Virus record (IMG/VR): IMGVR_UViG_2711768063_000002
Length of the DNA stretch: 36,452 bases
Source of the DNA: a virus
Taxonomy: Duplodnaviria > Heunggongvirae > Uroviricota > Caudoviricetes
Strand: one strand, 5' to 3'
In this document: positions 1 to 16,248 of the stretch, piece after piece
How the letters are laid out: each line of letters starts with the position of its first letter
How positions within the stretch are numbered: the stretch's first letter is position 1
The notes under the pieces: generated by a model
The model's input: only the letters and a program-made list of their open reading frames with translations
Told to the model about the DNA's origin: nothing
The model's database searches: none
Program-made: the position numbers and the translations under genes

Positions 1-1362
1 ATGTTTAAACCGGAACTCCTTTCCCCGGCGGGAACGCTGAAAAATATGCGTTACGCTTTCGCTTATGGCGCAGATGCTGTTTATGCGGGCCAGCCGCGTT
101 ATTCCCTGCGTGTGCGCAACAACGAATTCAACCACGAAAATCTTCAGCTCGGCATCAATGAAGCCCACGCGCTGGGGAAAAAGTTTTATGTCGTGGTCAA
201 CATTGCACCGCACAACGCCAAGCTGAAAACCTTTATCCGTGACCTGAAACCGGTGGTGGAAATGGGGCCGGATGCGCTGATTATGTCCGATCCAGGGCTG
301 ATTATGCTGGTGCGTGAGCACTTCCCTGAAATGCCGATCCACCTTTCGGTGCAGGCTAACGCCGTGAACTGGGCGACGGTGAAATTCTGGCAGCAAATGG
401 GCCTGACCCGCGTGATCCTCTCTCGCGAGCTGTCGCTGGAAGAGATTGAAGAGATCCGCAATCAGGTGCCGGATATGGAGATCGAGATCTTCGTTCACGG
501 CGCGCTGTGCATGGCCTACTCCGGTCGCTGCCTGCTCTCTGGCTATATCAACAAGCGCGACCCGAACCAGGGCACCTGCACCAACGCCTGCCGCTGGGAG
601 TACAACGTCCAGGAAGGGAAAGAAGATGATGTTGGCAACATCGTACACAAGTACGAGCCGATTCCGGTGCAAAATGTTGAGCCGACGCTGGGTATCGGCG
701 CACCAACCGACAAAGTGTTTATGATCGAAGAGGCCCAGCGTCCGGGCGAGTATATGACCGCGTTTGAAGATGAGCACGGCACTTACATCATGAACTCGAA
801 AGATCTGCGCGCCATCGCCCATGTAGAACGCCTGACCAAAATGGGCGTGCATTCGCTGAAAATCGAAGGTCGTACCAAATCTTTCTACTATTGTGCACGC
901 ACCGCACAGGTTTACCGCAAAGCTATCGATGACGCCGCTGCGGGAAAACCGTTCGATACCAGCCTGCTGGAAACTCTGGAAGGTCTGGCGCATCGTGGCT
1001 ATACCGAAGGTTTCCTGCGTCGTCATACTCACGACGATTATCAGAACTACGAATACGGTTATTCAGTTTCTGACCGCCAGCAGTTTGTTGGTGAGTTTAC
1101 CGGTGAGCGCAAGGGGGACCTCGCGGCGGTAACGGTGAAAAATAAATTCTCCGTTGGCGACAGCCTTGAGCTGATGACGCCGCAAGGCAACATTAATTTT
1201 ACCCTTGAGCACATGGAAAACGCCAAAGGCGAAGCTATGCCGATAGCACCAGGCGATGGTTATACTGTGTGGCTCCCGGTCCCGCAGGATCTTGAGCTCA
1301 ATTACGCGCTGCTGATGCGTAATTTCTCCGGGGAAACCACGCGTAATCCCCACGGTAAGTGA
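1..1362 (+). CDS. yegQ: Host peptidase U32-family protein YegQ (453 aa), complete
   Basis: ORF begins MFKPELLSPAGTLKNMRYAFAYGADAVYAGQPRYSLRVRNNEF, recognised as E. coli YegQ; TGA stop at 1360-1362; GC-balanced host-like codon usage. Confidence 0.9.
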   Translation: MFKPELLSPAGTLKNMRYAFAYGADAVYAGQPRYSLRVRNNEFNHENLQLGINEAHALGKKFYVVVNIAPHNAKLKTFIRDLKPVVEMGPDALIMSDPGLIMLVREHFPEMPIHLSVQANAVNWATVKFWQQMGLTRVILSRELSLEEIEEIRNQVPDMEIEIFVHGALCMAYSGRCLLSGYINKRDPNQGTCTNACRWEYNVQEGKEDDVGNIVHKYEPIPVQNVEPTLGIGAPTDKVFMIEEAQRPGEYMTAFEDEHGTYIMNSKDLRAIAHVERLTKMGVHSLKIEGRTKSFYYCARTAQVYRKAIDDAAAGKPFDTSLLETLEGLAHRGYTEGFLRRHTHDDYQNYEYGYSVSDRQQFVGEFTGERKGDLAAVTVKNKFSVGDSLELMTPQGNINFTLEHMENAKGEAMPIAPGDGYTVWLPVPQDLELNYALLMRNFSGETTRNPHGK

Positions 1363-1446: not shown

Positions 1447-1533
1447 GCTGAAAAACATAACCCATAAAATGCTAGCTGTACCAGGAACCACCTCCTTAGC
1501 CTGTGTAATCTCCCTTACACGGGCTTATTTTTT
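1447..1533 (+). ncRNA. cyaR: Small regulatory RNA CyaR (RyeE), about 87 nt, ending in an intrinsic terminator
   Basis: Sequence GCTGAAAAACATAACCCATAAAATGCTAGCTGTACCAGGAACCACCTCCTTAGCCTGTGTAATCTCCCTTACACGGGCTTATTTTTT matches my recollection of E. coli CyaR, including the CACCTCCTT anti-SD-like seed and the terminator hairpin GTGTAA...TTACAC plus T6. Position between yegQ and ogr is as in E. coli K-12. Confidence 0.75.
1507..1533. repeat. Prophage att core, ogr-proximal copy (27 bp, AATCTCCCTTACACGGGCTTATTTTTT)
   Basis: Exact 27-bp direct repeat of 35950..35976. It is the reverse complement of the P2 att core AAAAAATAAGCCCGTGTAAGGGAGATT as I recall it, and overlaps the cyaR terminator. Confidence 0.85.
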
Positions 1534-1597
1534 ACGCGTAATTCAATGAAATAAAAGGATTTATTTCTGGTCACGTCCACACATTGACCACATCGAC

Positions 1598-1625
1598 AAA
1601 AAAGCCCCTCGACTGAGGGGCTTTC
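1598..1625 (-). terminator. Intrinsic terminator downstream of ogr
   Basis: Read on the minus strand: GCCCCTC-AGTC-GAGGGGC hairpin (7-bp GC-rich stem) followed by TTTTTTG, 10 nt after the ogr stop. Confidence 0.6.
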
Positions 1626-1634
1626 TGTTTGTAA

Positions 1635-1853
1635 TTACATCCACATAATTTGCTGCCCTGACGGTAACGGGTGCGGCCTTACGGCGTGGACTTCTCCCGG
1701 CTTCACGATGTATCTCTGTACCGACTCATAGGTGATGAACGTGGCGCTGCAATTCACGTTCTGGCACTGGTGATAACGCTCTTTTGTCGTGTCAGTGATA
1801 TAGCGGCTTGTACGCGCATGTGCGGCATGCTGGCATAAAGGACAATGAAACAT
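1635..1853 (-). CDS. ogr: Late-gene transcriptional activator Ogr (zinc-finger, 72 aa)
   Basis: MFHCPLCQHAAHARTSRYITDTTKERYHQCQNVNCSATF with the Cys4 motif; the ORF track's 93-aa frame was trimmed to the ATG at 1851-1853. Confidence 0.9.
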   Translation of the reverse strand: MFHCPLCQHAAHARTSRYITDTTKERYHQCQNVNCSATFITYESVQRYIVKPGEVHAVRPHPLPSGQQIMWM

Positions 1854-1934
1854 CGCGAGCACCTCTTCCGGTTTTGTTGATGGTGCCATTTTAGTTAATT
1901 TATCCTTATAAAACAAACAGATAAAATAAAAATA

Positions 1935-3098
1935 TCACTCATCATCTTCTGTTTCGTACTCCACATCAGAAAGCCTGACCTCAAGCTCTAAGGACGTCGT
2001 GAAGCCGCTATTATTCAGAAAATGTGTCACCTTAGTGATTGTCCAGTCCTGCTCGTCTATGACGCGCTTAAAGCCTGATACTTTAACCGGTGTTTCCGTG
2101 TAAATATCAGCCCGACCAGTAGCCAGACTGATGGAGAACTCCGCTACACCCCGTTGCAGCTTATCCCACTTCGCCTGAGCGGCGCGCATGGCCTGTGCTT
2201 TCGTGGCATATACCGTGGTCAGGGCAAAAACGTTATCAGCCTCACCGGCCATGTATTCACCTTCGCGCGCTTCCGGTACTTTTGGCGCTTTCTTCTGCGT
2301 GACCGGTTTCGCTTTCGGGTGCTCCAGTGCGCGCAGGTGTTTTTCTTTCTTTTTGCGTTTCAGTTTTACCTTCTGCTTTTGCGGCTTCGGGTCTTTGGTG
2401 TGAAGCCACTTTGCCGTTACGCCGGTATAGGCTCCACGGTCAGCAATCGCAAAATGATGACGGTCGCCGTCGCTGCGGGTGATGGTAATCTGCGGGATTT
2501 TTTTACCGCTTGCCGTCACCCCCTGCCCCGCTTTGAGAAACAACAGTTTTCCCATTTTTACCGACACCTCACCGCCGTTGCGCTCTGCAAGACGAGTCAG
2601 GAATTTCGCATCAGACTCCTGCGACTGGTCGATGTGCGGAATTTTTATTCCGGCCAGTGACGGAGCGACTCTGGCTTCCAGCCTGTTACGGGAGGCTATC
2701 GCCTCAACAATCGCACCGAGCGTGGTGTCATGCCAGGAGCCTTCACGGCGGGAATTGAGCGTCCCGCGAAAATCTGCACTCCGGGCGCGGATGGTGACCA
2801 CATCCGGTGCGCCCCGGTGTTCAACCTCATCGACGGTAAATTTCCCTTTGCATACCAGGGCAAAACCTTTCCAGCCGATATACACCGTCAGGACAGCGCC
2901 ACGAATCGGTAGTCCGACCTGCCCGTCGGCATCGTTCAGTTCAATATCAAGCTGGTCAGCCTCAAAGCCCCGGTTATCCGTCAGAGTCATGCTCATCAGA
3001 CGGTCGCTGCTATTGCCGGTAATATCCCTGCTGTCGAGCATCAGCATGTAATCCGGCGTCAGCGTACTGCCTGCATCAAATGTCAGTGCATCCAGCAT
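1935..3098 (-). CDS. D: Tail protein D (387 aa)
   Basis: 387-aa ORF beginning MLDALTFDAGSTLTPDYMLMLDSRDITGNSSDRLMSM, same length and position as P2 gpD; ATG verified at 3096-3098. Confidence 0.9.
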   Translation of the reverse strand: MLDALTFDAGSTLTPDYMLMLDSRDITGNSSDRLMSMTLTDNRGFEADQLDIELNDADGQVGLPIRGAVLTVYIGWKGFALVCKGKFTVDEVEHRGAPDVVTIRARSADFRGTLNSRREGSWHDTTLGAIVEAIASRNRLEARVAPSLAGIKIPHIDQSQESDAKFLTRLAERNGGEVSVKMGKLLFLKAGQGVTASGKKIPQITITRSDGDRHHFAIADRGAYTGVTAKWLHTKDPKPQKQKVKLKRKKKEKHLRALEHPKAKPVTQKKAPKVPEAREGEYMAGEADNVFALTTVYATKAQAMRAAQAKWDKLQRGVAEFSISLATGRADIYTETPVKVSGFKRVIDEQDWTITKVTHFLNNSGFTTSLELEVRLSDVEYETEDDE

Positions 3099-3577
3099 TA
3101 TCCCGCCCCCGTCATACCTGTGAATTTAGTCGCCATACTGCCAGCCTTACCGATGAGCGATTCCGCCTGTTTACCGATATCGCCATAAAGCGCGGCCAGT
3201 GATTCGTCAACGCGGGTGAGCGACAGCGTAAAATCAATTTTCCGGGGTGTGCCGTCTGCAAAGAAAATACTCCCTGTTTCACTCACCTTGCTGATGACAT
3301 ACATACCGTAAATCATGCCGGTGCCATCCAGCAACGGCCACGCCCGGCCTTCCTCTGCCATCAGTCTGAGCGTGGTCATCGTCAGCTTGCCGCCGGTCAG
3401 TTCGGGATAAAGCACACCGGCAAGCGTGATGTTTTCCTCGCCCACACCGAGAAACTGAAAGGCATCCCGTTTACCGATACGGGAATTTGACGGCCAGCGA
3501 TAATCTGATTCACGCTGCATGGTCTGGTGTGGCAGCGTCTGGCGCATAAAAACAAACATACCTAACGCGAGCATCAT
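3098..3577 (-). CDS. U: Tail protein U (159 aa)
   Basis: 159-aa ORF between T and D, same length as P2 gpU; its stop overlaps the D start (3098-3100). Confidence 0.85.
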   Translation of the reverse strand: MMLALGMFVFMRQTLPHQTMQRESDYRWPSNSRIGKRDAFQFLGVGEENITLAGVLYPELTGGKLTMTTLRLMAEEGRAWPLLDGTGMIYGMYVISKVSETGSIFFADGTPRKIDFTLSLTRVDESLAALYGDIGKQAESLIGKAGSMATKFTGMTGAG

Positions 3578-3591
3578 TTTTCGTCACCTCC

Positions 3592-6039
3592 TTAACCGTC
3601 ATGCATCATGCTGGCACGGGCGCGCGCACGTTTATCCCGCTCGTATTTTTCGAGCGCATCCTGTAACTGGCGGTCAAGCTGTGTCCCCGGCGCAGTACCA
3701 CCCGTCAGGCTGATGTGATATTCGTTTTTACTCTGGTCCACATAAGAGCGGCCAGCCGGTGCCGTGACCGGCTGATAAGCCTGATAGCCTGCATAAGAGC
3801 TGGTCGCCGGAATATAACCACCGGTGCCATACGTGGCGGCATGAGTTCTGGCGGCGGTCTGGTCAAGTGTGTCTGACTCTTTGTTGATAACACCGAGTTT
3901 TTCCAGTACCCAGTCAATACCGCTGCGCAGTTTGTTGAACGCATTAAGCGGCAGCATCAGCGCGTCAGCCAGTGCCTGCCCGAACATGACGCCCGTGTCA
4001 CGGCAACGGTTCAGGGTGTCCTGTGTGGCTTTAACCGGAGCAATCAGGTTTGTAAACCACTGCCACGCGGCCTGTAACTTTTCGCCCAGCCAGTCAAACA
4101 CCGGCTTAAGTGGCGTGAACAGCTCCCCCACCGGCGCAAATGCCGCTTTCAGCCCTTCAACCACACCGCCAAAGAATGCGCTGACAGGCTCCCAGTATTT
4201 ACGGATAAGCAACGCCCCGGCGACAATGGCAGCCACCACGGCCACAACCGGCCAGCTAATCGCACCGATGGCCGTCATAACGGCACTACCAACCGTCGTG
4301 AAGATTGCCCCCATTGCGCCTGCTGCCGCGATAATGGCATTGATGCCGGTGATAACCGGCCAGGCTACAAGGCCAATGGCACCGATGATGCCAGTCAGCA
4401 CCAGTGCACCGCCGGCAATGATGCCGATGGTTGACGCCAGTGATTTGTTTTTCTGTATCCAGCCGTCGAGTTTTAACACATACTTTGTGGCCGTCTGCGT
4501 GAGCTTACGCAGTGCGCCTTCCTGCTGGTCAAACAGGTCAGTCCCCACCGCCTCATAAGCGGACTGAAACTCCTTAAAGTCACCGCCGAGATTGTCCTGC
4601 ATAATATTTACCAGCTCTGAGGTCTTCCCGTCCGAGGCTTTAAACGCAGCGGTCAGTTTGTCCAGCTTTCCGGTTGAGGCGGCAGTCATCAGCACGGCGG
4701 CGGCTGAGCTGGCCTCCTCCCCGAAAATGGTTTTCATGTATTCAGCCTGCTGGGCAGTACCGAGCCGGTTTTTCTCAAAACTGGCCTGCATTTCTTTCAG
4801 AATGGTAAATACTGGCCGGGTGTTTCCCTTGCTGTCTGAGGTTTTCACTCCAAGCTCTTTGAGTGCATCCCATGCTTTTCCCGTCGGTGCCTGCAGGCGG
4901 CTTAACACGGCACGGCTTCCCGTCCCCGCCATTGAGCCTGTGATTTTTGCATCATGCAGCGCCCCGACCATTGCGGCGGTTTCTTCAATGCTGACACCGG
5001 CATTTTTTGCCACAGGTGCGGCATAGGTCAGCGCATCGCTCATACCGTCAAAATCGGCGGCGGTTTTGTTCATCGTCATGGAGAGAACATCCCCGATATG
5101 AGCAACCTTATCGTTTGAAAGCTGAAAGGCAGATTTCATCCCCATCAGCAGGGCGGCGTTTTCTTCCATCGTGCGACGGTTCGCCAGCGCCATATTCAGC
5201 GTGACCGGCGTTGCCGCCTGAATGGCATCAACATCCCCACCCGCTTTCGCGATGATTATCTGTGCACCGGCCGCATCATCCGCCGAGGCGGCGGTATTGT
5301 CGCCGAGCTGGCGCGCCTGCTTGCGTAGCGCGGCCATTTCGGCGGAGTCTTTTGCCACACCGAGCACGGCCTGTAATTCTGAGTTTTTCTGCGCAAATTC
5401 ATAACCGGGCATCAGCAACTTAACTCCGGCCATCGTTCCCGCCGCCGCAATCCCCACACCAGCAGCGCCCACTGAGGCCATATTTCCGGCCAGTTCCTTG
5501 CCTGCCTGATAACGCTGTTTTACTGCGTTAAGTTTTGCCTGTTGCGCACTGACACGCGCCAGCGCGTCACGCTGACGGTTAAGCTGTGCGGTGGTTTCAC
5601 TGATACGGTTTTTCAGTCCCTGCTCATCATGTGCAAGATTGCGGGTATTAATTCCCACAACGGCCAGTTCCCGCTGCTGGCGTTTAACGGAATCCGTCAG
5701 GCGGTTATATTTCGCCTGTAAGTCCTCCGCCGCACGCTTCGCGGATTCCAGCACTTTCGCCTGAGCACGTGTCGGACGTTCGGTGTTGTTAAACTGTGTG
5801 GCAAGGGCTTCGGCCTCCTGCCGTGCCTTTTCAAGTGCATGACCAGTCACGGCGAGCTGCGCACTGGTCTTGCGAAATCCCTCAATACGGGATGCGTGAC
5901 CGTTCAGCTCGCGCAGTGATTTTTGTGTTTCCCGGATATCCCCCGACAGCGACTTGCTCGCTGTGCGGATGGATTTAAACGGGCGGGATGCCTGGTCAAC
6001 AGCCCTGAGCAATACCTGTAATTTTACATTGTTACTCAT
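3592..6039 (-). CDS. T: Tail tape-measure protein T (815 aa)
   Basis: 815-aa ORF with N-terminal coiled-coil-like region and Gly/Ala-rich hydrophobic segments typical of tape-measure proteins; same length as P2 gpT. Confidence 0.9.
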   Translation of the reverse strand: MSNNVKLQVLLRAVDQASRPFKSIRTASKSLSGDIRETQKSLRELNGHASRIEGFRKTSAQLAVTGHALEKARQEAEALATQFNNTERPTRAQAKVLESAKRAAEDLQAKYNRLTDSVKRQQRELAVVGINTRNLAHDEQGLKNRISETTAQLNRQRDALARVSAQQAKLNAVKQRYQAGKELAGNMASVGAAGVGIAAAGTMAGVKLLMPGYEFAQKNSELQAVLGVAKDSAEMAALRKQARQLGDNTAASADDAAGAQIIIAKAGGDVDAIQAATPVTLNMALANRRTMEENAALLMGMKSAFQLSNDKVAHIGDVLSMTMNKTAADFDGMSDALTYAAPVAKNAGVSIEETAAMVGALHDAKITGSMAGTGSRAVLSRLQAPTGKAWDALKELGVKTSDSKGNTRPVFTILKEMQASFEKNRLGTAQQAEYMKTIFGEEASSAAAVLMTAASTGKLDKLTAAFKASDGKTSELVNIMQDNLGGDFKEFQSAYEAVGTDLFDQQEGALRKLTQTATKYVLKLDGWIQKNKSLASTIGIIAGGALVLTGIIGAIGLVAWPVITGINAIIAAAGAMGAIFTTVGSAVMTAIGAISWPVVAVVAAIVAGALLIRKYWEPVSAFFGGVVEGLKAAFAPVGELFTPLKPVFDWLGEKLQAAWQWFTNLIAPVKATQDTLNRCRDTGVMFGQALADALMLPLNAFNKLRSGIDWVLEKLGVINKESDTLDQTAARTHAATYGTGGYIPATSSYAGYQAYQPVTAPAGRSYVDQSKNEYHISLTGGTAPGTQLDRQLQDALEKYERDKRARARASMMHDG

Positions 6040-6459
6040 TCGTGTTTCCGCTTCGCCGGAGCGCCTTTTCGCGCCATGTGATGAGTTCGGTCAGGCTCAT
6101 GGGATACAGTTCTGATGGCGGCCAGTGAAATATCACTGCCACATCCGCCATCAGGTCATCGACCGAGAGATTTTTCGGAAACGTCACTGCACCGAGTTCG
6201 GCGACAAAAAACCGACCACCTTACCGGCCAGCGCCACAAGGTCAGGCAGTTCCAGCGCGGCGACTTCCTGCTCGGTCAGCATCGGTGCCGTCATGCGCGG
6301 CAGCACTTTAATCAGTGCATCGACTTCGGAGTTCGCGACTGCAGCCAGACTGACACCGCGCAGCGTCCCGGCATTGGGTTTCATCAGCGTGACCTGTTCG
6401 ATAACCTGCTCACCACGTTTGACCGGATTGTCCAGGGTAATGACATTTTCTTTGTTCAT
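6032..6459 (-). CDS. E': Tail assembly chaperone E+E' made by a programmed -1 ribosomal frameshift (about 142 aa)
   Basis: Slippery T6G on the minus strand at about 6205..6212. My manual translation of the -1 frame from that point is open until a TAA at 6032-6034, giving 142 aa (the length I recall for P2 E+E') and overlapping the T start by 8 nt. Confidence 0.7.
6184..6459 (-). CDS. E: Tail assembly chaperone E (91 aa)
   Basis: 91-aa ORF directly upstream of T; ends VVGFLSPNSVQ with the slippery run G GTT TTT TG in its 3' end. Confidence 0.85.
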   Translation of the reverse strand: MNKENVITLDNPVKRGEQVIEQVTLMKPNAGTLRGVSLAAVANSEVDALIKVLPRMTAPMLTEQEVAALELPDLVALAGKVVGFLSPNSVQ

Positions 6460-6515
6460 GGTTTTCTCACTTCTGAATCGGGGTTAACCGGTCAGCCTGG
6501 CTGACCGGATGAAAA

Positions 6516-7034
6516 TTACAGGCCGATATTGCGGCGGTGTTGCTCCAGCCGGTCGACGCCGTTCACCTTCTCAATCATGTTGATGGTGTCGATTTCGACC
6601 AGCTCCTTACCGTCCATCGTCAGCCGGAAATAGGTGCAGACTACGGAGATTTTCGACTCGGTGTCTTCTCCCTGTTTACCCTCGCCGGTGTCGATTTCTT
6701 TCTGACGTCCACGCATGACCACTTCAACGGCCACCGTTTCGCCGGTATCGTCGCGCTGGTAAGAGCCTGCAAAACGAATCGGTACGGCATCCACGCCGGT
6801 TGCGGCGTAAAGCTCCCAGATAACCGAATCCGGGAAGCCCCCGAGTGACCACTCCATTGACAGTGCATCGTCATCAAGGCCGAGGTCTACCGGTGCGCTG
6901 CCGTTCATCCCCGCACCGCGATAGTTTTCGAGCTTACGGGTCAGTTTTGGCAGCGTGACGGACTTTGCAACGCCCTGATAGCTGTAGCCGTTCAGAAAGA
7001 CGTTCATTAACTTGAGTTTGCGCGGCATTGCCAT
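6516..7034 (-). CDS. FII: Tail tube protein FII (172 aa)
   Basis: 172-aa ORF MAMPRKLKLMNVFLNGYSYQGVAKSVTLPKLTRKLENYRGAGMNGSAPVDL; same length and position as P2 FII. Confidence 0.9.
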   Translation of the reverse strand: MAMPRKLKLMNVFLNGYSYQGVAKSVTLPKLTRKLENYRGAGMNGSAPVDLGLDDDALSMEWSLGGFPDSVIWELYAATGVDAVPIRFAGSYQRDDTGETVAVEVVMRGRQKEIDTGEGKQGEDTESKISVVCTYFRLTMDGKELVEIDTINMIEKVNGVDRLEQHRRNIGL

Positions 7035-7046
7035 CGGTCAGGCTCC

Positions 7047-8237
7047 TTAATTGCTGTTAACCGAAGTGACCAGATTTGCCAGGTATTTATCGGTAATACG
7101 CTGGCGCAGGGTCAGGTTTTCAAGAGGAGGCACCGGTGTATAGTCGTAGTCGATATACAGTTTTCCGGCCTTGAGGGTTTCCGCATCGTTGGATTCTTCG
7201 CTGAACCAGCAGGTCGCATCCACGATATAGCCGTTTGTTTTCAGCTCACGGAATTTGGCATTGATGCCGTCAACGATGTCGCGAATCAGCGTTGCTGTGA
7301 TGGGCTTATCCACCGCCCACATATGCGCCTCAGCCATCGTGTCGGCCAGCACCTGCGCGGTGCGGGTGTAGTTTTCAAAGAGGAACAGCGGGTCATCAGA
7401 GCAGGTACGGTTACCCCAGAAGCGGAAACCGTCACGGCGAATCAGCGTTGTGACGCCTGACTCGTTAAGCAGGTCAGCATCGGTGCCGGACTCCTGCAAA
7501 TCCCAGAATACAGATGCGCTGATGCCGGTAACACCGTTTACCCCAACGTTGGACAGCGTTTTATGCCAGCCCTGCTCCTGGTCGATTTTAGCGCGCAGCC
7601 CCAGCGCACGGGCGGTGGCATACGCGGTGGCGGTGGTACTGGTGACCGTATCCCATGCGAGGAAATCCGGCCAGATAACCATCAGTTCACGCTGGCTGAA
7701 ATTCTGGCGGTAGGCTTTCACCTCGGAAATGGTCTTACAGCCCCATGCGCTGATATATCCGAAAGCGCGCAGCTTCTGACAGACTGATGCCAGTGCAACA
7801 GCCACCTCTTTGGTGTCCAGTCCAGGCACGCCGAGAATACGCGGTTTAACACCGGTTACTGACTCCGCCGCCAGCAGGGCTTTCAGTCCGGTGTACTGAC
7901 CGTTTTCGTCGGTGGTGCCGATGATATTGGAAACGGTCTGCGCGAGTTTCGTTTCCTCGTCGTCGCCGGTGCCGTCTTCCACACGCACGACAACGGTGAC
8001 CGGTTTTGACTGGTCGGCGATGGCCTGCAACGATGCCGCCAGCGTGCCTTTTTTACCGGCCTTTGCAATTGCGCTCTGCACATTGGTAATCAGCACAGGT
8101 TTATTGAGGGGGAAGGTTTCCGCATCCGCATCGCTGGCCGTGCAGACCATGCCGACAATGGCCGTGGATACGGTGGAAATGACGCGGGTGCCGTCGTTAA
8201 TCTCCAGCACCTGCACGCCGTGATGATAGTCACTCAT
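7047..8237 (-). CDS. FI: Contractile tail sheath protein FI (396 aa)
   Basis: 396-aa ORF MSDYHHGVQVLEINDGTRVISTVSTAIVGMV; same length and position as P2 FI; ATG verified at 8235-8237. Confidence 0.9.
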   Translation of the reverse strand: MSDYHHGVQVLEINDGTRVISTVSTAIVGMVCTASDADAETFPLNKPVLITNVQSAIAKAGKKGTLAASLQAIADQSKPVTVVVRVEDGTGDDEETKLAQTVSNIIGTTDENGQYTGLKALLAAESVTGVKPRILGVPGLDTKEVAVALASVCQKLRAFGYISAWGCKTISEVKAYRQNFSQRELMVIWPDFLAWDTVTSTTATAYATARALGLRAKIDQEQGWHKTLSNVGVNGVTGISASVFWDLQESGTDADLLNESGVTTLIRRDGFRFWGNRTCSDDPLFLFENYTRTAQVLADTMAEAHMWAVDKPITATLIRDIVDGINAKFRELKTNGYIVDATCWFSEESNDAETLKAGKLYIDYDYTPVPPLENLTLRQRITDKYLANLVTSVNSN

Positions 8238-8330
8238 CCGTTTAACTCCGTGGTTAATGGGTGCAACTATTTTCTGTTGTGCAGAGCATGAGACGCTATT
8301 TGACCTGGCTGGTCAGTGGATGAAACAACA

Positions 8331-8360
8331 GATAAAGAAAAGGCGGGCAATTCGCCCGCC
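8331..8360 (-). terminator. Terminator-like hairpin on the minus strand upstream of the FI late promoter region
   Basis: Minus-strand read GGCGGGC-GAATT-GCCCGCC followed by TTTTCTTTATC; no minus-strand gene ends here. Confidence 0.4.
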
Positions 8361-8532
8361 AGTCCTGATTTGTACTCACTCATTTTCCGACTGATAATTT
8401 ACTTAGCCCAAAAGCCATCAAATCTGACAGTCTGCTTTGAGCGAGGAGCGAAAGTTGGCAGCTGTTATTAATTTCACATATATCCTATTGAAAAATGCCA
8501 ATCAAAAGTAGGTCGATTCAATCAGCTATACA

Positions 8533-8565
8533 TTCACATTCTAAAAATTTGGTAATATGTGAAAT
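8533..8565 (+). promoter_or_regulatory. Candidate sigma70 promoter for the kinase gene with extended -10 (TGgTAATAT at 8550..8558)
   Basis: TG at 8550-8551 then TAATAT at 8553-8558; possible -35 TTCACA at 8533-8538 has a short 14-bp spacer, so the call rests on the extended -10. Lies about 45 nt upstream of the ATG in an A+T-rich intergenic region. Confidence 0.35.
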
Positions 8566-8601
8566 AATGATGCACTGCAAAAGGAACTTATTAACAAAAT
8601 T

Positions 8602-9912
8602 ATGGGGGAGAAAATGGTTGGTGGCGTGTGGAATGACAAATTGGATGCGAAGGCGGCAGGCTGGGTAGCGGATGGTAACAAGAAAAGCGGTGGCCAAGGC
8701 GTGGCGTGTCCAGTGGTTCGTTCTGACATGAGAGCATTTTTAAAAGTATTGAAAAGCCAGAAAGACCCTGAGCGACGAGCTCGTATGTATCGCGAAGCAG
8801 TCGCTCTCTATACCTATGAACATCCGGGAATTCCATCTCTTATAGAAAGTAATTGCCATCGTTATGAACAAATGAATTACAAACTTTACTTAGTTACAGA
8901 AATAGTTGAAGGCCCAACATTACGTGAGTACATAGAGGAAAATGGGGCTATGTCATTTCAAGATGCGGTTGATATGATAGATCGCCTGTTGGATATAGTC
9001 GAATACTATCATTCTCGTGATGGCATTCACAGAGATATCAAACCTGATAATATTATACTCCGGTGTAATAACCCGGCTGATGCTGTATTGGTAGATTTCG
9101 GTCTCGCATGGCAACCTCAAGATGAGAACGCTCATGCTACTGATAATGGCCAAGAGCTAGGCAATCGTTTCTTAAGGCTCAATGAACTTGCGCCAGACAG
9201 TCCTAATAAACGAGATCCTCGAAGCGATATTACCTTTGTAGTAGGGATTTTATTTTACGTATTAACAGGAAAAAGCCCGTATGTTTTAGAAGAATCTGAG
9301 ACTGGGCGTCGACCTCACCAACGCGATGGAGTATCGGAAAGTATTCATGCCGCTACTAATGGTTGGGCACTTTCAATGCTTGCATTGTTTGACCGTGGTT
9401 TTTCACCGCTATTGAATAGTAGATTTCAGACGGTACAAGAGTTGAGAAAGGAGTTGAAGAGGATGAGCGAAAATAAACCTACATTGGCGGATGGTGAGAT
9501 TCTTTTAGAAATCAAAAAAAGGTTGGAAGCTCAAGGTGCTGAGATAAATAGTGTTTATATGAGTAAAATCAGGGAAGCTGTAAGCGAAATAATTTCAGTT
9601 CGTAATAACATCATAGAAGAGATCGGAGGTCATCTGTCTGGAGTTGAAACTGGATACTATAAATCTGAGCCCCGTCATTCTTGGTTAAACATAGGATTTG
9701 ATACCCCTGGTACTTCGTATCCTCGTTTCCGACCTACATTTGACTTTCAAATTATTGCTGATGAACTCATCATTACTGTCTTTTCAGAAGATCGGCAGGG
9801 TGTTGCTAAAACTATCTGGCGCACGGATGTTTCAAACTCTGACTTTGGTGATATTTTCCGCCGTAAGATCAGAGAAATATTTGTCACTGGGTTGAGCGAA
9901 ATTTTTAGTTAA
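8602..9912 (+). CDS. Hanks-type (eukaryotic-like) Ser/Thr protein kinase with an uncharacterised C-terminal domain of about 150-170 aa (436 aa); candidate phage-defence cargo
   Basis: Catalytic loop HRDIKPDNIIL, DFG motif VDFGLA, Gly-rich loop region GNKKSGGQGVA, candidate beta3 lysine in AFLKVLK, APD motif in ELAPDSP. A+T-rich, opposite strand to the tail operons, at the P2 Z/fun position. An alternative ATG at 8614 has a better SD (GGGGAG). Confidence 0.8.
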   Translation: MGEKMVGGVWNDKLDAKAAGWVADGNKKSGGQGVACPVVRSDMRAFLKVLKSQKDPERRARMYREAVALYTYEHPGIPSLIESNCHRYEQMNYKLYLVTEIVEGPTLREYIEENGAMSFQDAVDMIDRLLDIVEYYHSRDGIHRDIKPDNIILRCNNPADAVLVDFGLAWQPQDENAHATDNGQELGNRFLRLNELAPDSPNKRDPRSDITFVVGILFYVLTGKSPYVLEESETGRRPHQRDGVSESIHAATNGWALSMLALFDRGFSPLLNSRFQTVQELRKELKRMSENKPTLADGEILLEIKKRLEAQGAEINSVYMSKIREAVSEIISVRNNIIEEIGGHLSGVETGYYKSEPRHSWLNIGFDTPGTSYPRFRPTFDFQIIADELIITVFSEDRQGVAKTIWRTDVSNSDFGDIFRRKIREIFVTGLSEIFS

Positions 9913-10020
9913 TAGCTTGTGCCCATTAATATTAATTTTTATTAATGCTTTAGTTAAATATGATGCTCAGCACCTTATTAATTAACACATAGTGAAGTTT
10001 ATAGGGACAGCTCTTGGCAC

Positions 10021-10040
10021 AGGGCTGCTGTTGCAGCCCT
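10021..10040. other. GC-rich hairpin between the convergent kinase and G genes (AGGGCTGC-TGTT-GCAGCCCT)
   Basis: Perfect 8-bp inverted repeat with a 4-nt loop; no U-tract on either strand, so it is not a canonical intrinsic terminator. Confidence 0.3.
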
Positions 10041-10097
10041 AACCCCCCTAGACTTCAGTGCTATAGATACGTTAGCTCACACCAGAGCTCATACAAC

Positions 10098-10625
10098 TTA
10101 TTGCGGCATTTCCGGCCATTCAGGATTTGCAGGATCCACACGACTGACCAGAACGCTGTAGCGTTCCCATGCTTCCAGTCGGCTACGCTCCTCATCTGTT
10201 GCCATGTTCAGTCTGACCGCGCGCTCCAGCGGCAAAATCACGGATTCAGCATCTGCAAGAAGTCTGGCTTTCCGGTTTTCTGCCTGCTGCTGCAATTCCT
10301 CTGCCGTATAAATGCGTTTAATCACTTTGCCGTCCTTAAACATCCAGTTCCCTGAAATGTTCGCCCGCCGGTTAGCAGTAATATCCGCCACTTCAACAAC
10401 ACTTAATCCATCCGGTCTGATAGCTGTCGCATCCTTTTCCACATAGCGGATGATATTATCTTTGTCGTACGCTATTTTTAGCGTGTCATCAGCAAAATAC
10501 TTTTGTTCTTCGTACCAGTTCTTACCATCTTCTGAAAAAAACCAGACAACATCAAAGTCTTTTGTCAATTGATATTGTTCAACCGTTTTTGGATTACCTG
10601 CCGTTATATTTATCAAATGCTGCAT
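10098..10625 (-). CDS. G: Tail fibre assembly protein G (175 aa)
   Basis: 175-aa ORF immediately downstream of H; same length and position as P2 gpG; ATG verified at 10623-10625. Confidence 0.85.
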
Positions 10626-10628
10626 AAA

Positions 10629-12947
10629 TTATACCTGCGCCACGTTATACCAAGTCCCGTTAATGTATTTCTGCACCGGTCTGTAATATACGCCACCAAT
10701 GTTATCGGCAGAGTTTGAGCCGGTATCCTGAACAATAATGCCGGAATATACACACCCGGACGGTGCCTGATGTGTCCATGTCATGCCATTGTTCGCAGGT
10801 TTGTATGTGGCAGCACCACCAAGCCGGATATCCCGGACATAGCGTGAATCAAAATTACTATAGTTAGATGGTGATACCTGCCCGTTAACAGCAAAAGTGA
10901 TGCTGTTATCTGTATTTCTCTGACTGTAAAAATGCCAGCCTGCATCATCACCTAATTCAGCCACCACAGGACGACTTGAGTTTCCCCACAAATTGAATGC
11001 GGCTTCCTTCGTGGATGTATTGCTGCTGCTGACCGTGAACTTTTTCCCGCTACCGGCACGTACTTTGGTACTTGAGACAATATCACCAGTAACACTCAGG
11101 CCATGCCCCATTGATACAGCACCCGTGGCATCATTTATAATCAGTGGTCTTAAATTATTATAAGTACCTAATCTGTCACCTGATTTAGTCAACATAAAAT
11201 AAGTGCTGCTGCCATCATTCCTGATAAAGAATCCATAATTGCCATAAGCAATGCGCAGACCATTAGCACTGAGTGATGTAATCTCACCTCTTGAACGGAG
11301 ACCATAAGCGGAGCTGAGTGATAATTCTTCCTGAGCATCAGTATTACCAGTCGCCCAGCGAACTACCCCGCCCTGTACTGTTTCATGCCAGATAGTGTCT
11401 CCTTCTCCACCACGAAACTTTCTGAGATATTTTTTGCCGCCTCTGGTGCCTGAACATAAGGCCGTAGACATATAGGCATTCTGGCTTCCGCCATCCTGAT
11501 TAATCGTTCCGGTCATTGAGTCGCCCTGACGATTCCAGTCACGACGCCAGCCGGGGGAGTAGCCGTCCCCATGATTAATGTAAGTGAATTGCGCGCTGGT
11601 TGTACCGCCACCACTTGATGTTGTCGGCGTGGTCACTCGGATAGTGATTGCAGATTTAGTTCCCATGACCTCGACGACACAACCAGCCAGGTGGATATCA
11701 CCACATCCGGTATCCGTAATGATTTTGTTATTTGCATATGACCAGGAGCCTTTGCACATCCAGTACGGATGATTAAATGCACCACGGGAATCCAGCCATT
11801 CAATAAACTGAGCGGTTGTCCAGTTTCCGGCTTCAGTGCTCAAAGCGCCGCTATAAGCACGACAGGCACCGATATTTTTCGTGAAGGTATCCTTTCCCGG
11901 AATATCCGCACCGTTCTGATCTTTCTGAAGACGTTTTTCAGCATTGTCATAGGCAGACTTCACTGCTTTTGGCGTTGCCGCGAGGGTTTCAGAATCACTG
12001 TTGGTGGCGCTACTGAGCTGGACAAGACCTTTTCGCGCCGTGGTGGCATCCTGTGCAGTGTATTTCCCGTTAGCAAGGTCATACGCTGTCTTAACCGCCT
12101 TTGGTGTTGCCGCAAGCGTTTCAGAATCGCTGTTGGTGACGCTACTGAGCTGGACAAGACCTTTTCGCGCTGTGGTGGCGTCCTGTGCAGTGTATTTCCC
12201 GTTAGCAAGGTCATACGCGGCCTTTACCGCTTTTGGTGTTGCGGCGAGCGTTTCAGACGTGCTGTTGGTGGCACTACTGAGCTGGACAAGACCTTTTCGC
12301 GCTGTGGTGGCATCCTGCGCAGTATATTTCCTGTTAGCAAGGTCATACGCGGCCTTTACCGCTTTCGGCGTTGCGGCCAGTGTTTCAGACGTGCTGTTGG
12401 TCGCACTGCTTAACTGAGTAAAACCTTTGGCGGTCAGCGAGGCGTCCGGGTGACGTCGTGACTGTTCGTGCTCTGCAATTTTGTCATCAACGTAATCCTG
12501 TGTCGCCATCACCGTTGTGGTGTCAATGGTCAGCTCCACCGAGGCCACACTGCTGACGATGATGACCATGCGACAGGTCTGCGAACGCCCTGAGCCTTCG
12601 GCAAGAGCTGGCTTATAACTTTCGGCCATGTTCGCCACGGCAATTAGCGTTCCCGCATCATCGTACAGGCCAAGTTCACGCATCCAGAAACCGCCCACCT
12701 CCGGCGGAATAACCAGCTCTGCGATAATATAATTACTGTTTCGTTTGTCCTGGCTGATTTTGTTCAGCGCATGTCGCCAGACTTCGTGGATAAGCCCGGT
12801 CTGTCCGGCATCCGGGACAGGCAATTTACCACCGCCATCCCCGACGGCCATCGTGGTAATGTTGACCTTCCGCCCTCCCGGTGCGGTTGCCGCTGCCAGC
12901 TTTGCTGCACCGGCAGTGGTGATAACGGTTTTGAATTTTGTGCTCAT
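10629..12947 (-). CDS. H: Tail fibre protein H (772 aa) with internal tandem repeats
   Basis: N-terminus MSTKFKTVITTAGAAKLAAATAPGGRKVNITTMAVGDGGGKLP as in P2-like gpH; four copies of an approximately 40-aa repeat (KGLVQLSSATNSTSETLAATPKAVKAAYDLANGKYTAQDATTAR). Confidence 0.9.
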   Translation of the reverse strand: MSTKFKTVITTAGAAKLAAATAPGGRKVNITTMAVGDGGGKLPVPDAGQTGLIHEVWRHALNKISQDKRNSNYIIAELVIPPEVGGFWMRELGLYDDAGTLIAVANMAESYKPALAEGSGRSQTCRMVIIVSSVASVELTIDTTTVMATQDYVDDKIAEHEQSRRHPDASLTAKGFTQLSSATNSTSETLAATPKAVKAAYDLANRKYTAQDATTARKGLVQLSSATNSTSETLAATPKAVKAAYDLANGKYTAQDATTARKGLVQLSSVTNSDSETLAATPKAVKTAYDLANGKYTAQDATTARKGLVQLSSATNSDSETLAATPKAVKSAYDNAEKRLQKDQNGADIPGKDTFTKNIGACRAYSGALSTEAGNWTTAQFIEWLDSRGAFNHPYWMCKGSWSYANNKIITDTGCGDIHLAGCVVEVMGTKSAITIRVTTPTTSSGGGTTSAQFTYINHGDGYSPGWRRDWNRQGDSMTGTINQDGGSQNAYMSTALCSGTRGGKKYLRKFRGGEGDTIWHETVQGGVVRWATGNTDAQEELSLSSAYGLRSRGEITSLSANGLRIAYGNYGFFIRNDGSSTYFMLTKSGDRLGTYNNLRPLIINDATGAVSMGHGLSVTGDIVSSTKVRAGSGKKFTVSSSNTSTKEAAFNLWGNSSRPVVAELGDDAGWHFYSQRNTDNSITFAVNGQVSPSNYSNFDSRYVRDIRLGGAATYKPANNGMTWTHQAPSGCVYSGIIVQDTGSNSADNIGGVYYRPVQKYINGTWYNVAQV
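11942..12431. repeat. Four tandem copies of an approximately 120-bp repeat inside the tail fibre gene H
   Basis: Near-identical DNA blocks (for example GCTACTGAGCTGGACAAGACCTTTTCGCGC recurs four times), encoding the repeated tail-fibre peptide. Confidence 0.8.
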
Positions 12948-12957
12948 TATTCCTCAC

Positions 12958-13488
12958 TTATCCGGGGTAAACCGTAATTACATCGCCGTCGTAAGCCACA
13001 CCACCGGCGAACAGGTAGCCGGGAATGTCCCGGGTAATGTTCAGGCCAATAAGATGACGGCTTGCAGGTTTGGCATCAGCAATAAGCCGTTCCATTTCCT
13101 GATACATTGCCTCTGTGATGCCGCTTTCCAGTACACCAATATCAAGCCGGAAGGTGCCTGGCGGGTCACTGTTTTCCCACCACTCCGTCACGTTGATGAG
13201 ATAGCCCAGCGGCTCCACCACACGCCGGATTGCACCTATAGTGCCTTTATGACAGTGGATGAAATAGGCATCGCGAATAACGGCGCGTTTGGTCGCTTCC
13301 GGCCACTTTTCATCCCATCTGTCGACCGAAAACGCCCACGCCAGCCACGGCAGCAGATTTGCCGGGCAGGTGTCCGGGTTCCACAGCTCACGAATACTGA
13401 CCGGCGTTTTTTCAATTTCCGCACAGGCTTTTGCAGCGGCGACTTCAAGCGGTGATGAGCCGGTCGGCAGCAGGCGCGAATCACTCAT
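12958..13488 (-). CDS. I: Baseplate protein I (176 aa)
   Basis: 176-aa ORF at the P2 gpI position with the same length. Confidence 0.85.
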   Translation of the reverse strand: MSDSRLLPTGSSPLEVAAAKACAEIEKTPVSIRELWNPDTCPANLLPWLAWAFSVDRWDEKWPEATKRAVIRDAYFIHCHKGTIGAIRRVVEPLGYLINVTEWWENSDPPGTFRLDIGVLESGITEAMYQEMERLIADAKPASRHLIGLNITRDIPGYLFAGGVAYDGDVITVYPG

Positions 13489-14389
13489 CCGAGCCTCCGG
13501 TCACGACGCGGTATTCGGTACAGAAAGACGCCTGCGTACTGTTGAGCACGATGTCGGCAAGCGGTGAAGCCAGTTCGACACGCTGCACGCCTTCCACATG
13601 CAAAGCGGCATAAATGGCAGACAGTCGGATGTCGCGCCCCAGCCGGTGCTGTGCCGTGATATACGCTTCCAGTTTTTTCACGGCGGCAGCGCGAATGGGT
13701 TCGCTTTCGGGGCCAGGGTAAAGGTAAAGCGTGGCATTTATCTGGTATTCAACGATGGCGGCAGACTGCACGGTCACACGGTCGGCCACCGGTCTGACGT
13801 CCTCGCCATTCAGGGCGTTGCGCACCACAGCCAGCAGGTCTTCAGATGCCACACCGTTATTTTCACGTGACAGCACAGAGATGGTGACACAGGCCGGAGA
13901 CGGACTGGTGACAGAGATATCCGCGACACGCCCGTCGGCACTGCGACCATGATACTGATAGGCTCCCACCGACCCGGCGACGCTTAAACCTTCAAACGCC
14001 TGCTGAATACGCAGACGATAATCCGTGTCAGATTCCATCACGGCCGGTGTCGGCGGGAGGGTCGAATCATCTGCCGGGGTGATAGTCAGACGCGTGGTGT
14101 TGTAATTGGCACCAATCACATCAAGGTCATTACCGGCGGCACAGGCCAGCATTACCGCCCGTGCGGCCTCATTCACACGCTGACGCCAGATAAGCTCACG
14201 ATAAGCATTTTCCTCCAGCAGTTTGACGAGAGGCTCGGATTCCAGCATCAGGGCGCGGGCGACCGCCTCCTGCTGGTCTTCCGGGTAAAGGGAAATCAGT
14301 GTCGCCTTGCGTTCAGCAAGAATGGTTTCAAAGTCCAGCTCCTCGACCACATCCGGTGCGGGTAGCTGGTTCAGGTCGATAATCGGCAT
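13481..14389 (-). CDS. J: Baseplate protein J (302 aa)
   Basis: 302-aa ORF at the P2 gpJ position with the same length; overlaps the I start by 8 nt. Confidence 0.85.
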   Translation of the reverse strand: MPIIDLNQLPAPDVVEELDFETILAERKATLISLYPEDQQEAVARALMLESEPLVKLLEENAYRELIWRQRVNEAARAVMLACAAGNDLDVIGANYNTTRLTITPADDSTLPPTPAVMESDTDYRLRIQQAFEGLSVAGSVGAYQYHGRSADGRVADISVTSPSPACVTISVLSRENNGVASEDLLAVVRNALNGEDVRPVADRVTVQSAAIVEYQINATLYLYPGPESEPIRAAAVKKLEAYITAQHRLGRDIRLSAIYAALHVEGVQRVELASPLADIVLNSTQASFCTEYRVVTGGSDE

Positions 14390-14393
14390 GGTT

Positions 14394-14741
14394 TCAACTC
14401 ACAGGGATGGTTAACGAAAGTGGCTGGCCGGTGTCGTTGTGCTGGCCGGTTAACGTGACCGTCATTCGCCCGTCAAAACTGCGCGCCGTGGTGACGGATG
14501 ACAGGGTGACGCGGGGTTCCCATTTCAGCACTGCCATGTAACAGGCGACTTTAATCTGCAACTCAAGCGCCGGGGTCTGCGGCTGGTCAATCATTGACGC
14601 CAGCAACGAGCCGTAATCACGACGCATCACCCGTGAGCCGACCGGTGTGCGCAGGATATCGCCGATACTCTGGCTGATATGCTCAAGGTCAGTGACAGTC
14701 AGGCCATCACTGCGATTCATTCCGAGATAACGCGCTGTCAT
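14394..14741 (-). CDS. W: Baseplate protein W (115 aa)
   Basis: 115-aa ORF at the P2 gpW position with the same length; ATGA overlap with the V stop. Confidence 0.85.
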   Translation of the reverse strand: MTARYLGMNRSDGLTVTDLEHISQSIGDILRTPVGSRVMRRDYGSLLASMIDQPQTPALELQIKVACYMAVLKWEPRVTLSSVTTARSFDGRMTVTLTGQHNDTGQPLSLTIPVS

Positions 14742-15373
14742 AGAGGTCCCCCTGTTGTGCCGCCACTGTCGCCGGGGTGTTTATGGGTATGCAGTACCTT
14801 ACCGTTTGATGAGAGTTCACCGCCGGTGTGTTCAATGTTGCCGCGCATCGTCCCGCCCTTCTGCACTTCCAGCGTGCCGGTAATCAGCCTGTTGGTGCAG
14901 ACCACCTCCGGTGTGTCCAGGGTGACGCGGGTTGATGCTTTCACCATGACCACCGGCACCGTGGCAGTAACAGAATCAGAAGCCGTCACGCTGGCCGTTT
15001 TAATTCCGCTTACCGTAAGTGCACTGGTTTCGGGTTCATACTCAATCACCGCCCCGTCAGGGAAACGGATATGCAGGGCATCCGCCGACGCAGACGGCGC
15101 GGGGTTATCGCCGGAATAAATCCCCGGCAGAACGAACGCCGTGTCGAGTTCACCGCCCACGGCCAGAATCAGCACCTGTTCCCCCACGGAAGGTGCCCAC
15201 CATGTGCGCGAACGTCCGGCGCGATGGGTCAGCCACTGAAGCCAGTCGGTGCACATGCCGCCGGTCTGCACACGGCAGCGACCGGCGTTAAGGTTGGTTT
15301 CAACGATAATGCCGGTGCGGATCATGTTGCGCAGTGCGCGCGCGAGTTCCTGAATATTTGCGAGAGTGTTCAT
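14738..15373 (-). CDS. V: Baseplate spike protein V (211 aa)
   Basis: The track ORF starts at a TTG; trimmed to ATG at 15371-15373, giving MNTLANIQELARALRNMIRTG, the gpV N-terminus. Confidence 0.85.
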   Translation of the reverse strand: MNTLANIQELARALRNMIRTGIIVETNLNAGRCRVQTGGMCTDWLQWLTHRAGRSRTWWAPSVGEQVLILAVGGELDTAFVLPGIYSGDNPAPSASADALHIRFPDGAVIEYEPETSALTVSGIKTASVTASDSVTATVPVVMVKASTRVTLDTPEVVCTNRLITGTLEVQKGGTMRGNIEHTGGELSSNGKVLHTHKHPGDSGGTTGGPL

Positions 15374-15456
15374 GCATGTGAGATTGCACAATATATAAAA
15401 GTTATGCTATCTGGATTCATTTGTAGAACCACCAGACAACATTCAAGGAGAGCGTA

Positions 15457-16242
15457 ATGGTCAGCTATAATGTGACTAATGTGTGGGAGCTAATCGTTTT
15501 GTATCTTTTGGTCTTTGCAGTATTAGCATTTTTTAGCTTTGGTAAAAGTAACCTTATGAGGCTTATTGCACATTATTTCAAATTTGGATATTCAGACAAA
15601 AAATTAAAAAGACTGGACCGCGAGTGGCGCGACATTCAACTATTTAAAACACTTAACGGAATCAATGTATCAGGCATCGAAGATGTGAGAATGATACAGC
15701 AGGGGCTGATTGATGGAAAACTAAAAACATCGGATTTTTTCCTTACTCGCTTCTGGGGAGACATAACAGAACCGCTATGCATCACAAAAACAATGAGTGC
15801 AGTCCTGGCCGGAATTCTTTATATTATCTTCGCATGTTACATACACAATGAACAATCCGCTATAGTAAGGGATGCCATAGGTATACCATATAAAAACATG
15901 ATGTACTATGTTTATAGTGACAAAGTTCTTTTATCCTTCAAAAATAAAACAGTTGAATTTAATAAAACTTATAGCCTTGCCGATTGCAAGAGTCTGCAAA
16001 ACGTATTTATAAAAGACACACTTCCTGAGATCGCCTGCAATAAGCTCTTACAGCTAAACGAGGAGGACTCCGAATGGTTAAGTCAGGAGATTAAAGATAA
16101 TAACAGCCACAGAAAAACATTATTAATAATATCCCTAACCTATTTCATTTCAGGTCTGCTTATATTCCTGTCATATGCAAAATTCCTTTACGCCAATAAG
16201 AAGGTTTTAGAATACAAAGCATCAAATAAAAACCACTCATAA
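15457..16242 (+). CDS. Predicted multi-pass membrane protein of unknown function (261 aa); cargo at the S/V (P2 orf30) position
   Basis: Strong SD AAGGAG 6 nt before the ATG; three hydrophobic helices (LIVLYLLVFAVLAFFSF, MSAVLAGILYIIFACYI, LLIISLTYFISGLLIFLSY); very A+T-rich with Lys/Asn/Ile-rich codons; opposite strand to flanking tail genes. Confidence 0.75.
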   Translation: MVSYNVTNVWELIVLYLLVFAVLAFFSFGKSNLMRLIAHYFKFGYSDKKLKRLDREWRDIQLFKTLNGINVSGIEDVRMIQQGLIDGKLKTSDFFLTRFWGDITEPLCITKTMSAVLAGILYIIFACYIHNEQSAIVRDAIGIPYKNMMYYVYSDKVLLSFKNKTVEFNKTYSLADCKSLQNVFIKDTLPEIACNKLLQLNEEDSEWLSQEIKDNNSHRKTLLIISLTYFISGLLIFLSYAKFLYANKKVLEYKASNKNHS

Positions 16243-16248
16243 ACCTCT

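Follow-up and report, generated by a model that had tools for sequence, protein, structure and literature searches.

Does a phage that integrates at the 3' end of a small RNA gene leave that gene intact, and where does each copy of the sequence repeated at the two ends of the prophage come from? We addressed these questions in a stretch of 36,452 nucleotides (IMG/VR virus record IMGVR_UViG_2711768063_000002), referred to below as the window, in which a prophage lies between bacterial genes and adjoins a sequence resembling the small RNA gene cyaR.

Identification of the small RNA gene

CyaR is a CRP-activated, Hfq-binding small RNA. In order to identify the gene we searched the whole window against Rfam and obtained a single match, CyaR_RyeE (RF00112), at positions 1445-1530 of the plus strand, with a score of 100.7 bits (gathering score 47; E 3.5e-19) and full coverage of the model (positions 1-85 of 85). 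The initial annotation had placed cyaR at 1447-1533; these bounds lie within 2-3 nt of the Rfam match and the sequence between them is base for base that of E. coli K-12, which confirms the assignment. The bacterial genes of the window are as follows.

1..1362, plus strand: yegQ/trhP, conserved bacterial gene 5' of cyaR (453-aa open reading frame, annotated so in E. coli genomes)
1447..1533, plus strand: cyaR (ryeE) sRNA gene, intact (Rfam RF00112; same as in K-12 and in the strain with an empty site)
36135..36452, minus strand: yegR, bacterial gene on the far side of the att site (105-aa open reading frame; annotation in matched genomes)

The genomic position also agrees with that of cyaR, as the gene is found directly downstream of yegQ/trhP (yegQ ends at 1362 and cyaR starts at 1447). 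A pattern scan gave 120 Enterobacterales species loci, and yegQ is located upstream of cyaR in every one of the 118 that retain upstream sequence. Over the repeated sequence described below (the att core) and the 130 nt on its 5' side there is no difference from E. coli K-12 or from the empty-site strain (100% identity). Judged from these shared 130 nt, the K-12 cyaR promoter is present. The left-hand copy of the core therefore does keep an intact sRNA, as had been proposed: both cyaR and its 130-nt upstream region are those of K-12 and of the empty site. In practical terms, cyaR should be called intact when lysogens of this kind are annotated.

The att core begins inside the terminator hairpin of CyaR

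The sequence AATCTCCCTTACACGGGCTTATTTTTTA occurs exactly twice in the window, at 1507-1534 and at 35950-35977, both on the plus strand, and no further match to it was found in the window when up to three mismatches were allowed. A chance repeat was rejected, as none of 100 shuffles gave a match even at three mismatches. The repeat is exact over 28 bp, and wider identity amounts to 33 of 35 positions (1507-1541 against 35950-35984). The first 27 nt of both copies (1507-1533 and 35950-35976) are identical at 27 of 27 positions to the attP core annotated at 24356-24382 of phage P2. The core length of 27 bp given initially is thus that of the annotated attP core of P2, while the exact repeat in the window is 28 bp.

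1498..1534, plus strand: CyaR intrinsic terminator with an 11-bp stem, a 6-nt loop and a U tract (fold and terminator scan)
1507..1534, plus strand: att core, cyaR-proximal copy, with bacterial DNA to the left and phage DNA to the right (exact 28-bp repeat)
35950..35977, plus strand: att core, int-proximal copy, with phage DNA to the left and bacterial DNA to the right (exact repeat; orphan CyaR fragment)

The CyaR hairpin consists of a 5' arm at 1498-1508, a loop at 1509-1514 and a 3' arm at 1515-1525, and is followed by UAUUUUUUA. It folds with a free energy of -15.9 kcal/mol (z -6.65), and the terminator scan agrees. The RNA thus ends in a rho-independent hairpin with a U tract (UAUUUUUU), which makes up a putative Hfq-binding 3' end. 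According to the initial annotation the core is the 3' hairpin and U tract of the sRNA. This is accurate for the loop, the whole 3' arm and the U tract; of the 5' arm, however, only the last 2 of 11 nt belong to the core. The other nine bases (1498-1506) are outside it, on the bacterial side only, and everything from 1507 on is within it. The core therefore ends inside the stem, and host and phage each supply half a hairpin.

Comparison of the junctions with an unoccupied site

As the empty-site reference we used strain 2015C-3108 (NZ_CP027307.1), and sequences were registered on the core and compared over 130 nt on each side. Gene order in this strain is yegQ-cyaR-core-yegR, with a single core. 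At the cyaR-side junction the upstream sequence is identical to the empty site at 130 of 130 positions and the downstream sequence matches P2 attP at 123 of 130; at the int-side junction the upstream sequence matches P2 (128/130) and the downstream sequence the empty site (130/130). The unoccupied site was expected to carry the core, and strain 2015C-3108 does so, in exactly one copy with flanks identical at 130 of 130 positions on each side. The same core is therefore present at both ends of the prophage and in the attP of the free phage, and the lone core of the unoccupied site has as its flanks the outer flanks of the prophage.

This junction pattern is the standard signature of conservative site-specific recombination. 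It follows that integration duplicates nothing of the host, the sRNA terminator included, contrary to what was first suggested: recombination is conservative and the second core arrives with the phage. We conclude that the window is almost certainly a complete P2 lysogen at the primary E. coli att site, between yegQ and yegR, in which the gene cyaR has been restored. Nothing in the sequence speaks against this reading.

P2 biology suggests how this would come about. P2 Int together with host IHF would recombine the attP core, situated between ogr and int, with the identical chromosomal core, which corresponds to the last 27 nt of cyaR. A base-perfect cyaR would thereby be rebuilt at the cyaR-proximal junction. 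The promoter, the seed region and the 5' stem arm of the rebuilt gene are bacterial, and its 3' portion is either bacterial or phage-derived, depending on the position of strand exchange, of which identical cores leave no trace. From established P2 biology, Cox acting with Int and IHF could reverse the integration. The sequence architecture, the empty site and the identity with the annotated Int-arm, IHF, core and Cox sites of P2 were seen directly, whereas the proteins presumed to act on them are taken from what is known of P2.

The prophage and its att system compared with phage P2

The prophage is 34.4 kb long, is bracketed by the 28-bp direct repeat and is collinear with P2 through cos. 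A blastn comparison with P2 (NC_001895) gave matches at 1507-8457, 12222-25674 and 29793-35977, with 96.6-97.4% identity. The bounds of P2 homology are the two cores, as it starts at 1507 and ends at 35977, and the prophage boundaries can be fixed to the base at 1507/1534 and 35950/35977. The genes int, cox, C and ogr and the structural genes are represented by open reading frames of P2 length.

1535..35949, unstranded: P2 prophage body (Peduovirus P2-type), collinear with P2 except for two swapped accessory loci and a diverged tail-fibre end
1635..1853, minus strand: ogr, late-gene activator and first phage gene past cyaR (72 of 72 residues identical to P2 Ogr; Pfam Ogr_Delta, E 2e-21)
34857..35870, plus strand: int, P2 tyrosine integrase, read toward the right-hand core (335 of 337 residues identical to P2 Int)
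1532..1565, unstranded: putative homologue of the P2 attP IHF region (P2 24324-24357; an alignment score of 22 corresponds to about 28 of 34 positions)
1569..1596, unstranded: putative Int arm-type site, 'P arm' in the P2 record (28 of 28 positions identical to P2 24293-24320)
1601..1624, unstranded: rho-independent terminator of the ogr/F operon (24 of 24 positions identical to P2 24265-24288)
35836..35862, unstranded: putative P' arm with sites of the Int arm type, a pair of direct TGTCCACA repeats that overlap the int end (27 of 27 positions identical to P2 24470-24496)
35860..35933, unstranded: putative Cox (excisionase) region (about 73 of 74 positions as in P2 24399-24472, alignment score 72)

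The integrase carries the Pfam domains Phage_integrase and Int_N (matches to PF00589 and PF24624), and a tyrosine integrase thus adjoins the att site. The GenBank record of P2 annotates attP with Int P-arm, IHF, Int core, Cox and Int P'-arm sites; going by the alignment, the window has candidate arm sites on both sides of the core as well as candidate IHF and Cox sites. The P-arm site holds GTCCACA and GACCACA, which are the reverse complements of TGTGGAC and TGTGGTC. The P2-type arm consensus is tgTGGaCa according to Nilsson et al. (PMC3448106), who also explain how to derive cores from attL and attR.

Altogether, the window and the attP and attB of P2 share the core, the arm sites, the Cox region, the ogr terminator, the orientation and the flanking genes, along with an integrase that is identical at 335 of 337 residues. 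The att system of the window prophage is without difference from that of reference P2, and only the accessory cargo and the tail-fibre tip differ.

Relation to known integration sites

Yu et al. (1989) and Barreiro and Haggard-Ljungquist (1992) reportedly described the 27-nt core and the K-12 remnant, and we take the yegQ-yegR site to be the locus that the latter authors (1992) called locI of E. coli C. The observation made in this window is correct and not new: this is the P2 primary att site, and cyaR/ryeE is already catalogued as a P2 target. The initial annotation saw here a phage that uses the 3' end of an sRNA as attB while restoring the gene, and this reading is supported as one more instance of an example already known. 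The relevant passage of Bobay et al. (PMC3603311), citing Wassarman et al. 2001, refers to ryeE in E. coli as 'previously known to be targeted by phages'. Table 2 of the E. coli W genome paper (PMC3032704) lists a 'cyaR RNA' insertion site that is occupied by Wphi2 (P2) in W, by ogr-D' in K-12 and by P2*B in B, and is empty in Crooks. As far as these table entries allow a comparison, Wphi2 of E. coli W and P2*B of E. coli B are prophages of the same class at the same sRNA gene, in other strains and with other cargo.

The cryptic remnant of K-12 (cyaR-ogrK-D'-yegR) has the same cyaR-core-P arm-ogr junction as the window, and in the 130 nt that follow the core 127 positions are identical. The deletion in K-12 extends from inside gene D into the start of the second core, leaving TACACGGGCTTATTTTT of this core; the window, in contrast, has the full 34-kb prophage and both cores intact.

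Integration at the 3' end of RNA genes is known from phage 186 at tRNA-Ile, from Fels-2 and SopEPhi at ssrA, and from phages at ryeB/sdsR in Salmonella (PMC3448106, PMC3603311, PMC3333887). The logic is the same in all of these, in that a phage copy of the 3' end of a structured RNA rebuilds the gene on integration. The target at cyaR differs from those of the tRNA type because it is the terminator of an Hfq-dependent sRNA and not a tRNA-like acceptor or T arm. Moreover, unlike in tRNA-type targets, the core at cyaR stops inside a stem, so that half of the hairpin is host-only and the phage half must match it. The split between core and stem, together with the stem covariation and the arm relics described below, could seed a modest study of the co-evolution of att cores and sRNA terminators.

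The int-proximal copy of the core

The second core starts 79 nt downstream of the stop codon of int (34857-35870). In its own context it has a free energy of only -3.1 kcal/mol (z -0.32), the hairpin is not formed, and the terminator scan called none at this core. The int-side core cannot form the terminator because the 5' arm is missing. We therefore rejected it both as a working terminator and as the terminator of int, given that there is neither a fold nor a scan call. The right-hand copy had been described as an orphan terminator fragment next to int; the word fragment is apt, whereas the word terminator is not. Annotators should be warned that this sequence is neither a second sRNA nor a terminator.

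Two inverted repeats were observed in this part of the window. The first, GGGCTTAT...ATAAGCCC, is an inverted repeat of 8 bp that extends across the U tract of the core (35964-35988) and belongs to attB and the int-side context, being found also in the empty-site strain NZ_CP027307.1. The corresponding hairpin has a free energy of approximately -10.5 kcal/mol, and no U run follows it on either strand, as read from the sequence. This repeat is lost at the cyaR-side junction, where the phage flank TTACGCGTAA replaces TTATGCATAA; both of these 10-mers are palindromes. The second is a long inverted repeat at 35878-35932, inside the predicted Cox-binding region between int and the core. The 120 nt at 35871-35990 fold with -34.3 kcal/mol (z -3.7), and the long inverted repeat could affect the 3' end of the int transcript.

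Downstream context of CyaR in lysogens

The first base past the 28-bp core is C at 1535 and T at 35978, and the flanks diverge from there. The sole change for CyaR would appear to be its downstream context, where the phage arm and the ogr terminator replace the yegR-side flank. The CyaR terminator is reported to be leaky, with approximately 41% intrinsic read-through in a reporter context (PMC9765468), so that lysogens and strains with an empty site should produce different longer transcripts. Read-through transcripts of the lysogen, as of K-12, would extend into the phage arm and reach the ogr terminator. In the terminator scan this element (1601-1624) also scores as a terminator on the plus strand, and as such it would stop read-through from cyaR.

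It is conceivable that integration changes the termination efficiency, the read-through products or the Hfq loading of CyaR, given the different base and diverging flanks past the core, the loss of the GGGCTTAT/ATAAGCCC inverted repeat of the attB context at the cyaR junction, and the reported leakiness of the terminator. We nevertheless regard such an effect as unlikely, because neither the mature 87-nt RNA nor its hairpin or U tract differs between the two contexts, and because in K-12, the main strain of CyaR studies, phage-type sequence already follows the gene and CyaR is described in the literature as functioning normally.

Distribution of the site in E. coli and other species

Among complete E. 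coli genomes the locus is almost universal (5424 of 5426). Counting genomes covered at 80% or more of the query, we found the int-core-yegR junction in 812 complete genomes (approximately 15%) and the cyaR-core-ogr junction in 1219, the latter figure including K-12-type remnants. At this coverage the site is contiguous or near-contiguous in approximately 4570 genomes. In the other genomes the left-junction query breaks at query position 434 or 442, which correspond to window positions 1533 and 1541, at the core end.

The terminator stem covaries among the 120 Enterobacterales species loci, in which 37 stem haplotypes occur; at 105 of the 120, all nine scored positions are paired. The exact core of P2 was found in only five of the 120, and it therefore appears that this core is specific to terminators of the E. 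coli type. A possible footprint of phage-supplied 3' arms, an asymmetry of G.U wobble pairs, was rejected, as 47 pairs with U on the 5' arm against 37 with G on the 5' arm give no clear bias.

P2-type arm sequences (GTCCACA...GACCACA, then an ogr-like terminator) directly follow cyaR in five species, namely Citrobacter sp. Awk 4, bacterium BS0013, a Buttiauxella MAG, Enterobacter sp. UNJFSC 003 and Citrobacter youngae. Near these arm-like loci we observed ogr and a D' fragment in Citrobacter youngae and a gpV fragment in Enterobacter sp. UNJFSC 003; within 6 kb of the others there are no phage genes. For the 120 loci we thus rejected the idea that other genera carry active P2-like prophages at cyaR, and the arm-like loci are relics. 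In the Buttiauxella MAG the 3' arm is mismatched to the host 5' arm (a C.A pair), at a cost of 5.4 kcal/mol relative to a perfect stem. This single MAG, which is weak evidence, suggests that rebuilding of the gene is not always perfect.

Two other features were observed in the course of these comparisons. The genome CP170191.1, labelled Enterobacter hormaechei B56, has a cyaR stem of the E. coli type and the exact P2 core, and its YegQ fragment shares 98% identity with E. coli YegQ, compared to approximately 92% for other Enterobacter species, which suggests a mislabelled genome or horizontally acquired DNA. Additionally, some E. coli strains, though not K-12, carry a ParD/ParE toxin-antitoxin pair between yegP and yegQ. 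The pair is located upstream of yegQ, beyond the window (1205-1799 of the NZ_CP027307.1 locus, and 18205-18799 of a second E. coli locus), and is another small variable insert beside this hotspot.

Excision and the origin of the repeats and of cyaR

Prophage decay is common at this site. K-12 retains only ogr, a D' fragment and a truncated core, and 5 of 120 other species keep only arm-like relics after cyaR. A prophage that is stuck, so that it no longer excises and its att sites are historical, would be in keeping with these cases. We consider this distinctly unlikely for the window, in view of two perfect cores, int, cox, C, ogr and structural open reading frames at P2 length, conservation of the annotated Int, Cox and IHF sites, and collinearity with P2 through cos.

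A further possibility is that cyaR, or its functional 3' part, is a phage-borne sRNA and not a host gene. Every P2 genome does carry the loop, the 3' arm and the U tract, and the 3' portion found in a lysogen may physically derive from the phage. However, P2 lacks the promoter, the seed and the 5' arm (1447-1506), homology to it beginning only at 1507, and the phage fragment alone does not fold. The synteny of yegQ and cyaR at all 118 species loci with upstream sequence holds with or without phage DNA downstream, and the locus is found in nearly all E. coli genomes (5424 of 5426), approximately 4570 of them without a prophage there. We can dismiss this explanation with near certainty in favor of a host gene that is rebuilt on integration.

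Direct repeats flanking an element and a single copy in the empty site would also be seen if the 28-bp repeats were a target-site duplication from a transposition-like insertion, but this is refuted, with practically no probability left to it, by the P2 record: the same 27 nt are already present in free P2 (24356-24382), located between ogr and int and annotated as attP along with Int, IHF and Cox sites, whereas a duplicated target would not belong to the element before its integration; the element, moreover, has a tyrosine integrase and no transposase. A length of 28 bp is also unusually long for a target-site duplication.

A probable arm-site relic in the bacterial flank

In the bacterial DNA beyond the int-proximal core we found a sequence resembling the P-arm site.

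35994..36023, unstranded: degenerate Int P-arm copy in bacterial DNA (27 identical positions in a 31-column alignment to 1567-1596)
36027..36036, plus strand: AATCTCCCTT, second copy of the first 10 nt of the core (exact 10-mer match, three bases past the relic; significance uncertain)

The local alignment score of the relic is 38, compared to a mean of 14.7 and a maximum of 25 for shuffled sequences, and none of 2000 shuffles reached 38. Real homology to the P-arm site is therefore quite likely. The relic starts 16 bp past the core; it is 16 bp nearer the core than the attP arm site is, and has no IHF-like spacer. The relic and the 10-mer are also present in the empty site (3452-3494 of the NZ_CP027307.1 locus) and in K-12, and so are part of the E. 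coli attB region and not of this prophage.

The resemblance to the phage arm suggests that the relic is probably the fossil of an older P2-like integration. A present function, such as recruiting the N-terminal domain of Int or making the int-side junction attP-like, is highly improbable; if real, it could bias the strong preference of P2 for this site, the excision of P2 or its secondary integrations. The 3' stem arm of the sRNA may also have been shaped by recurrent phage traffic. In each species the host-only 5' arm must pair with a 3' arm supplied by the phage. A distant-mode search of the phage collection found no donor phage for the arm-like flank. Only two records of that collection contain the flank, ON470606 and a 2.4-kb 'Phage TP' fragment, and both were rejected because they look chromosome-derived; ON470606 begins at the core and so probably includes host flank.

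Accessory cargo of the prophage

The Z/fun locus of P2 is replaced at 8458-10054 by a gene for a 436-aa Ser/Thr protein kinase (open reading frame 8602-9912, plus strand), which matches the PADLOC family PD-T4-6 (E 2e-174) and the Pfam domain Pkinase. The locus is a known cargo hotspot of P2, and the kinase gene has the appearance of a defence gene. The tin/old locus of P2 is replaced by another cassette at 25704-29792, with the following open reading frames.

25943..27298, plus strand: open reading frame of the tin/old replacement
27715..28311, minus strand: open reading frame of the tin/old replacement
28394..29149, minus strand: open reading frame of the tin/old replacement
29166..29612, plus strand: open reading frame of the tin/old replacement

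An FRG-domain protein encoded in this cassette matches the PADLOC candidate PDC-S15 (E 8e-98), and there are also uncharacterised proteins that match phrog_13799, phrog_3403 and phrog_33524. The segment 25704-29792 may be an uncharacterised defence cassette.

The tail-fibre gene H (10629-12947, minus strand) is longer than its P2 counterpart, with an open reading frame of 772 aa as against the 669 aa calculated from the P2 coordinates. Within it a 132-bp unit is repeated 3.5 times in tandem with 90% matches (11946-12401). The distal part of the gene (10684-11957) resembles P2 only in patches, which suggests that the host-range region has been swapped.
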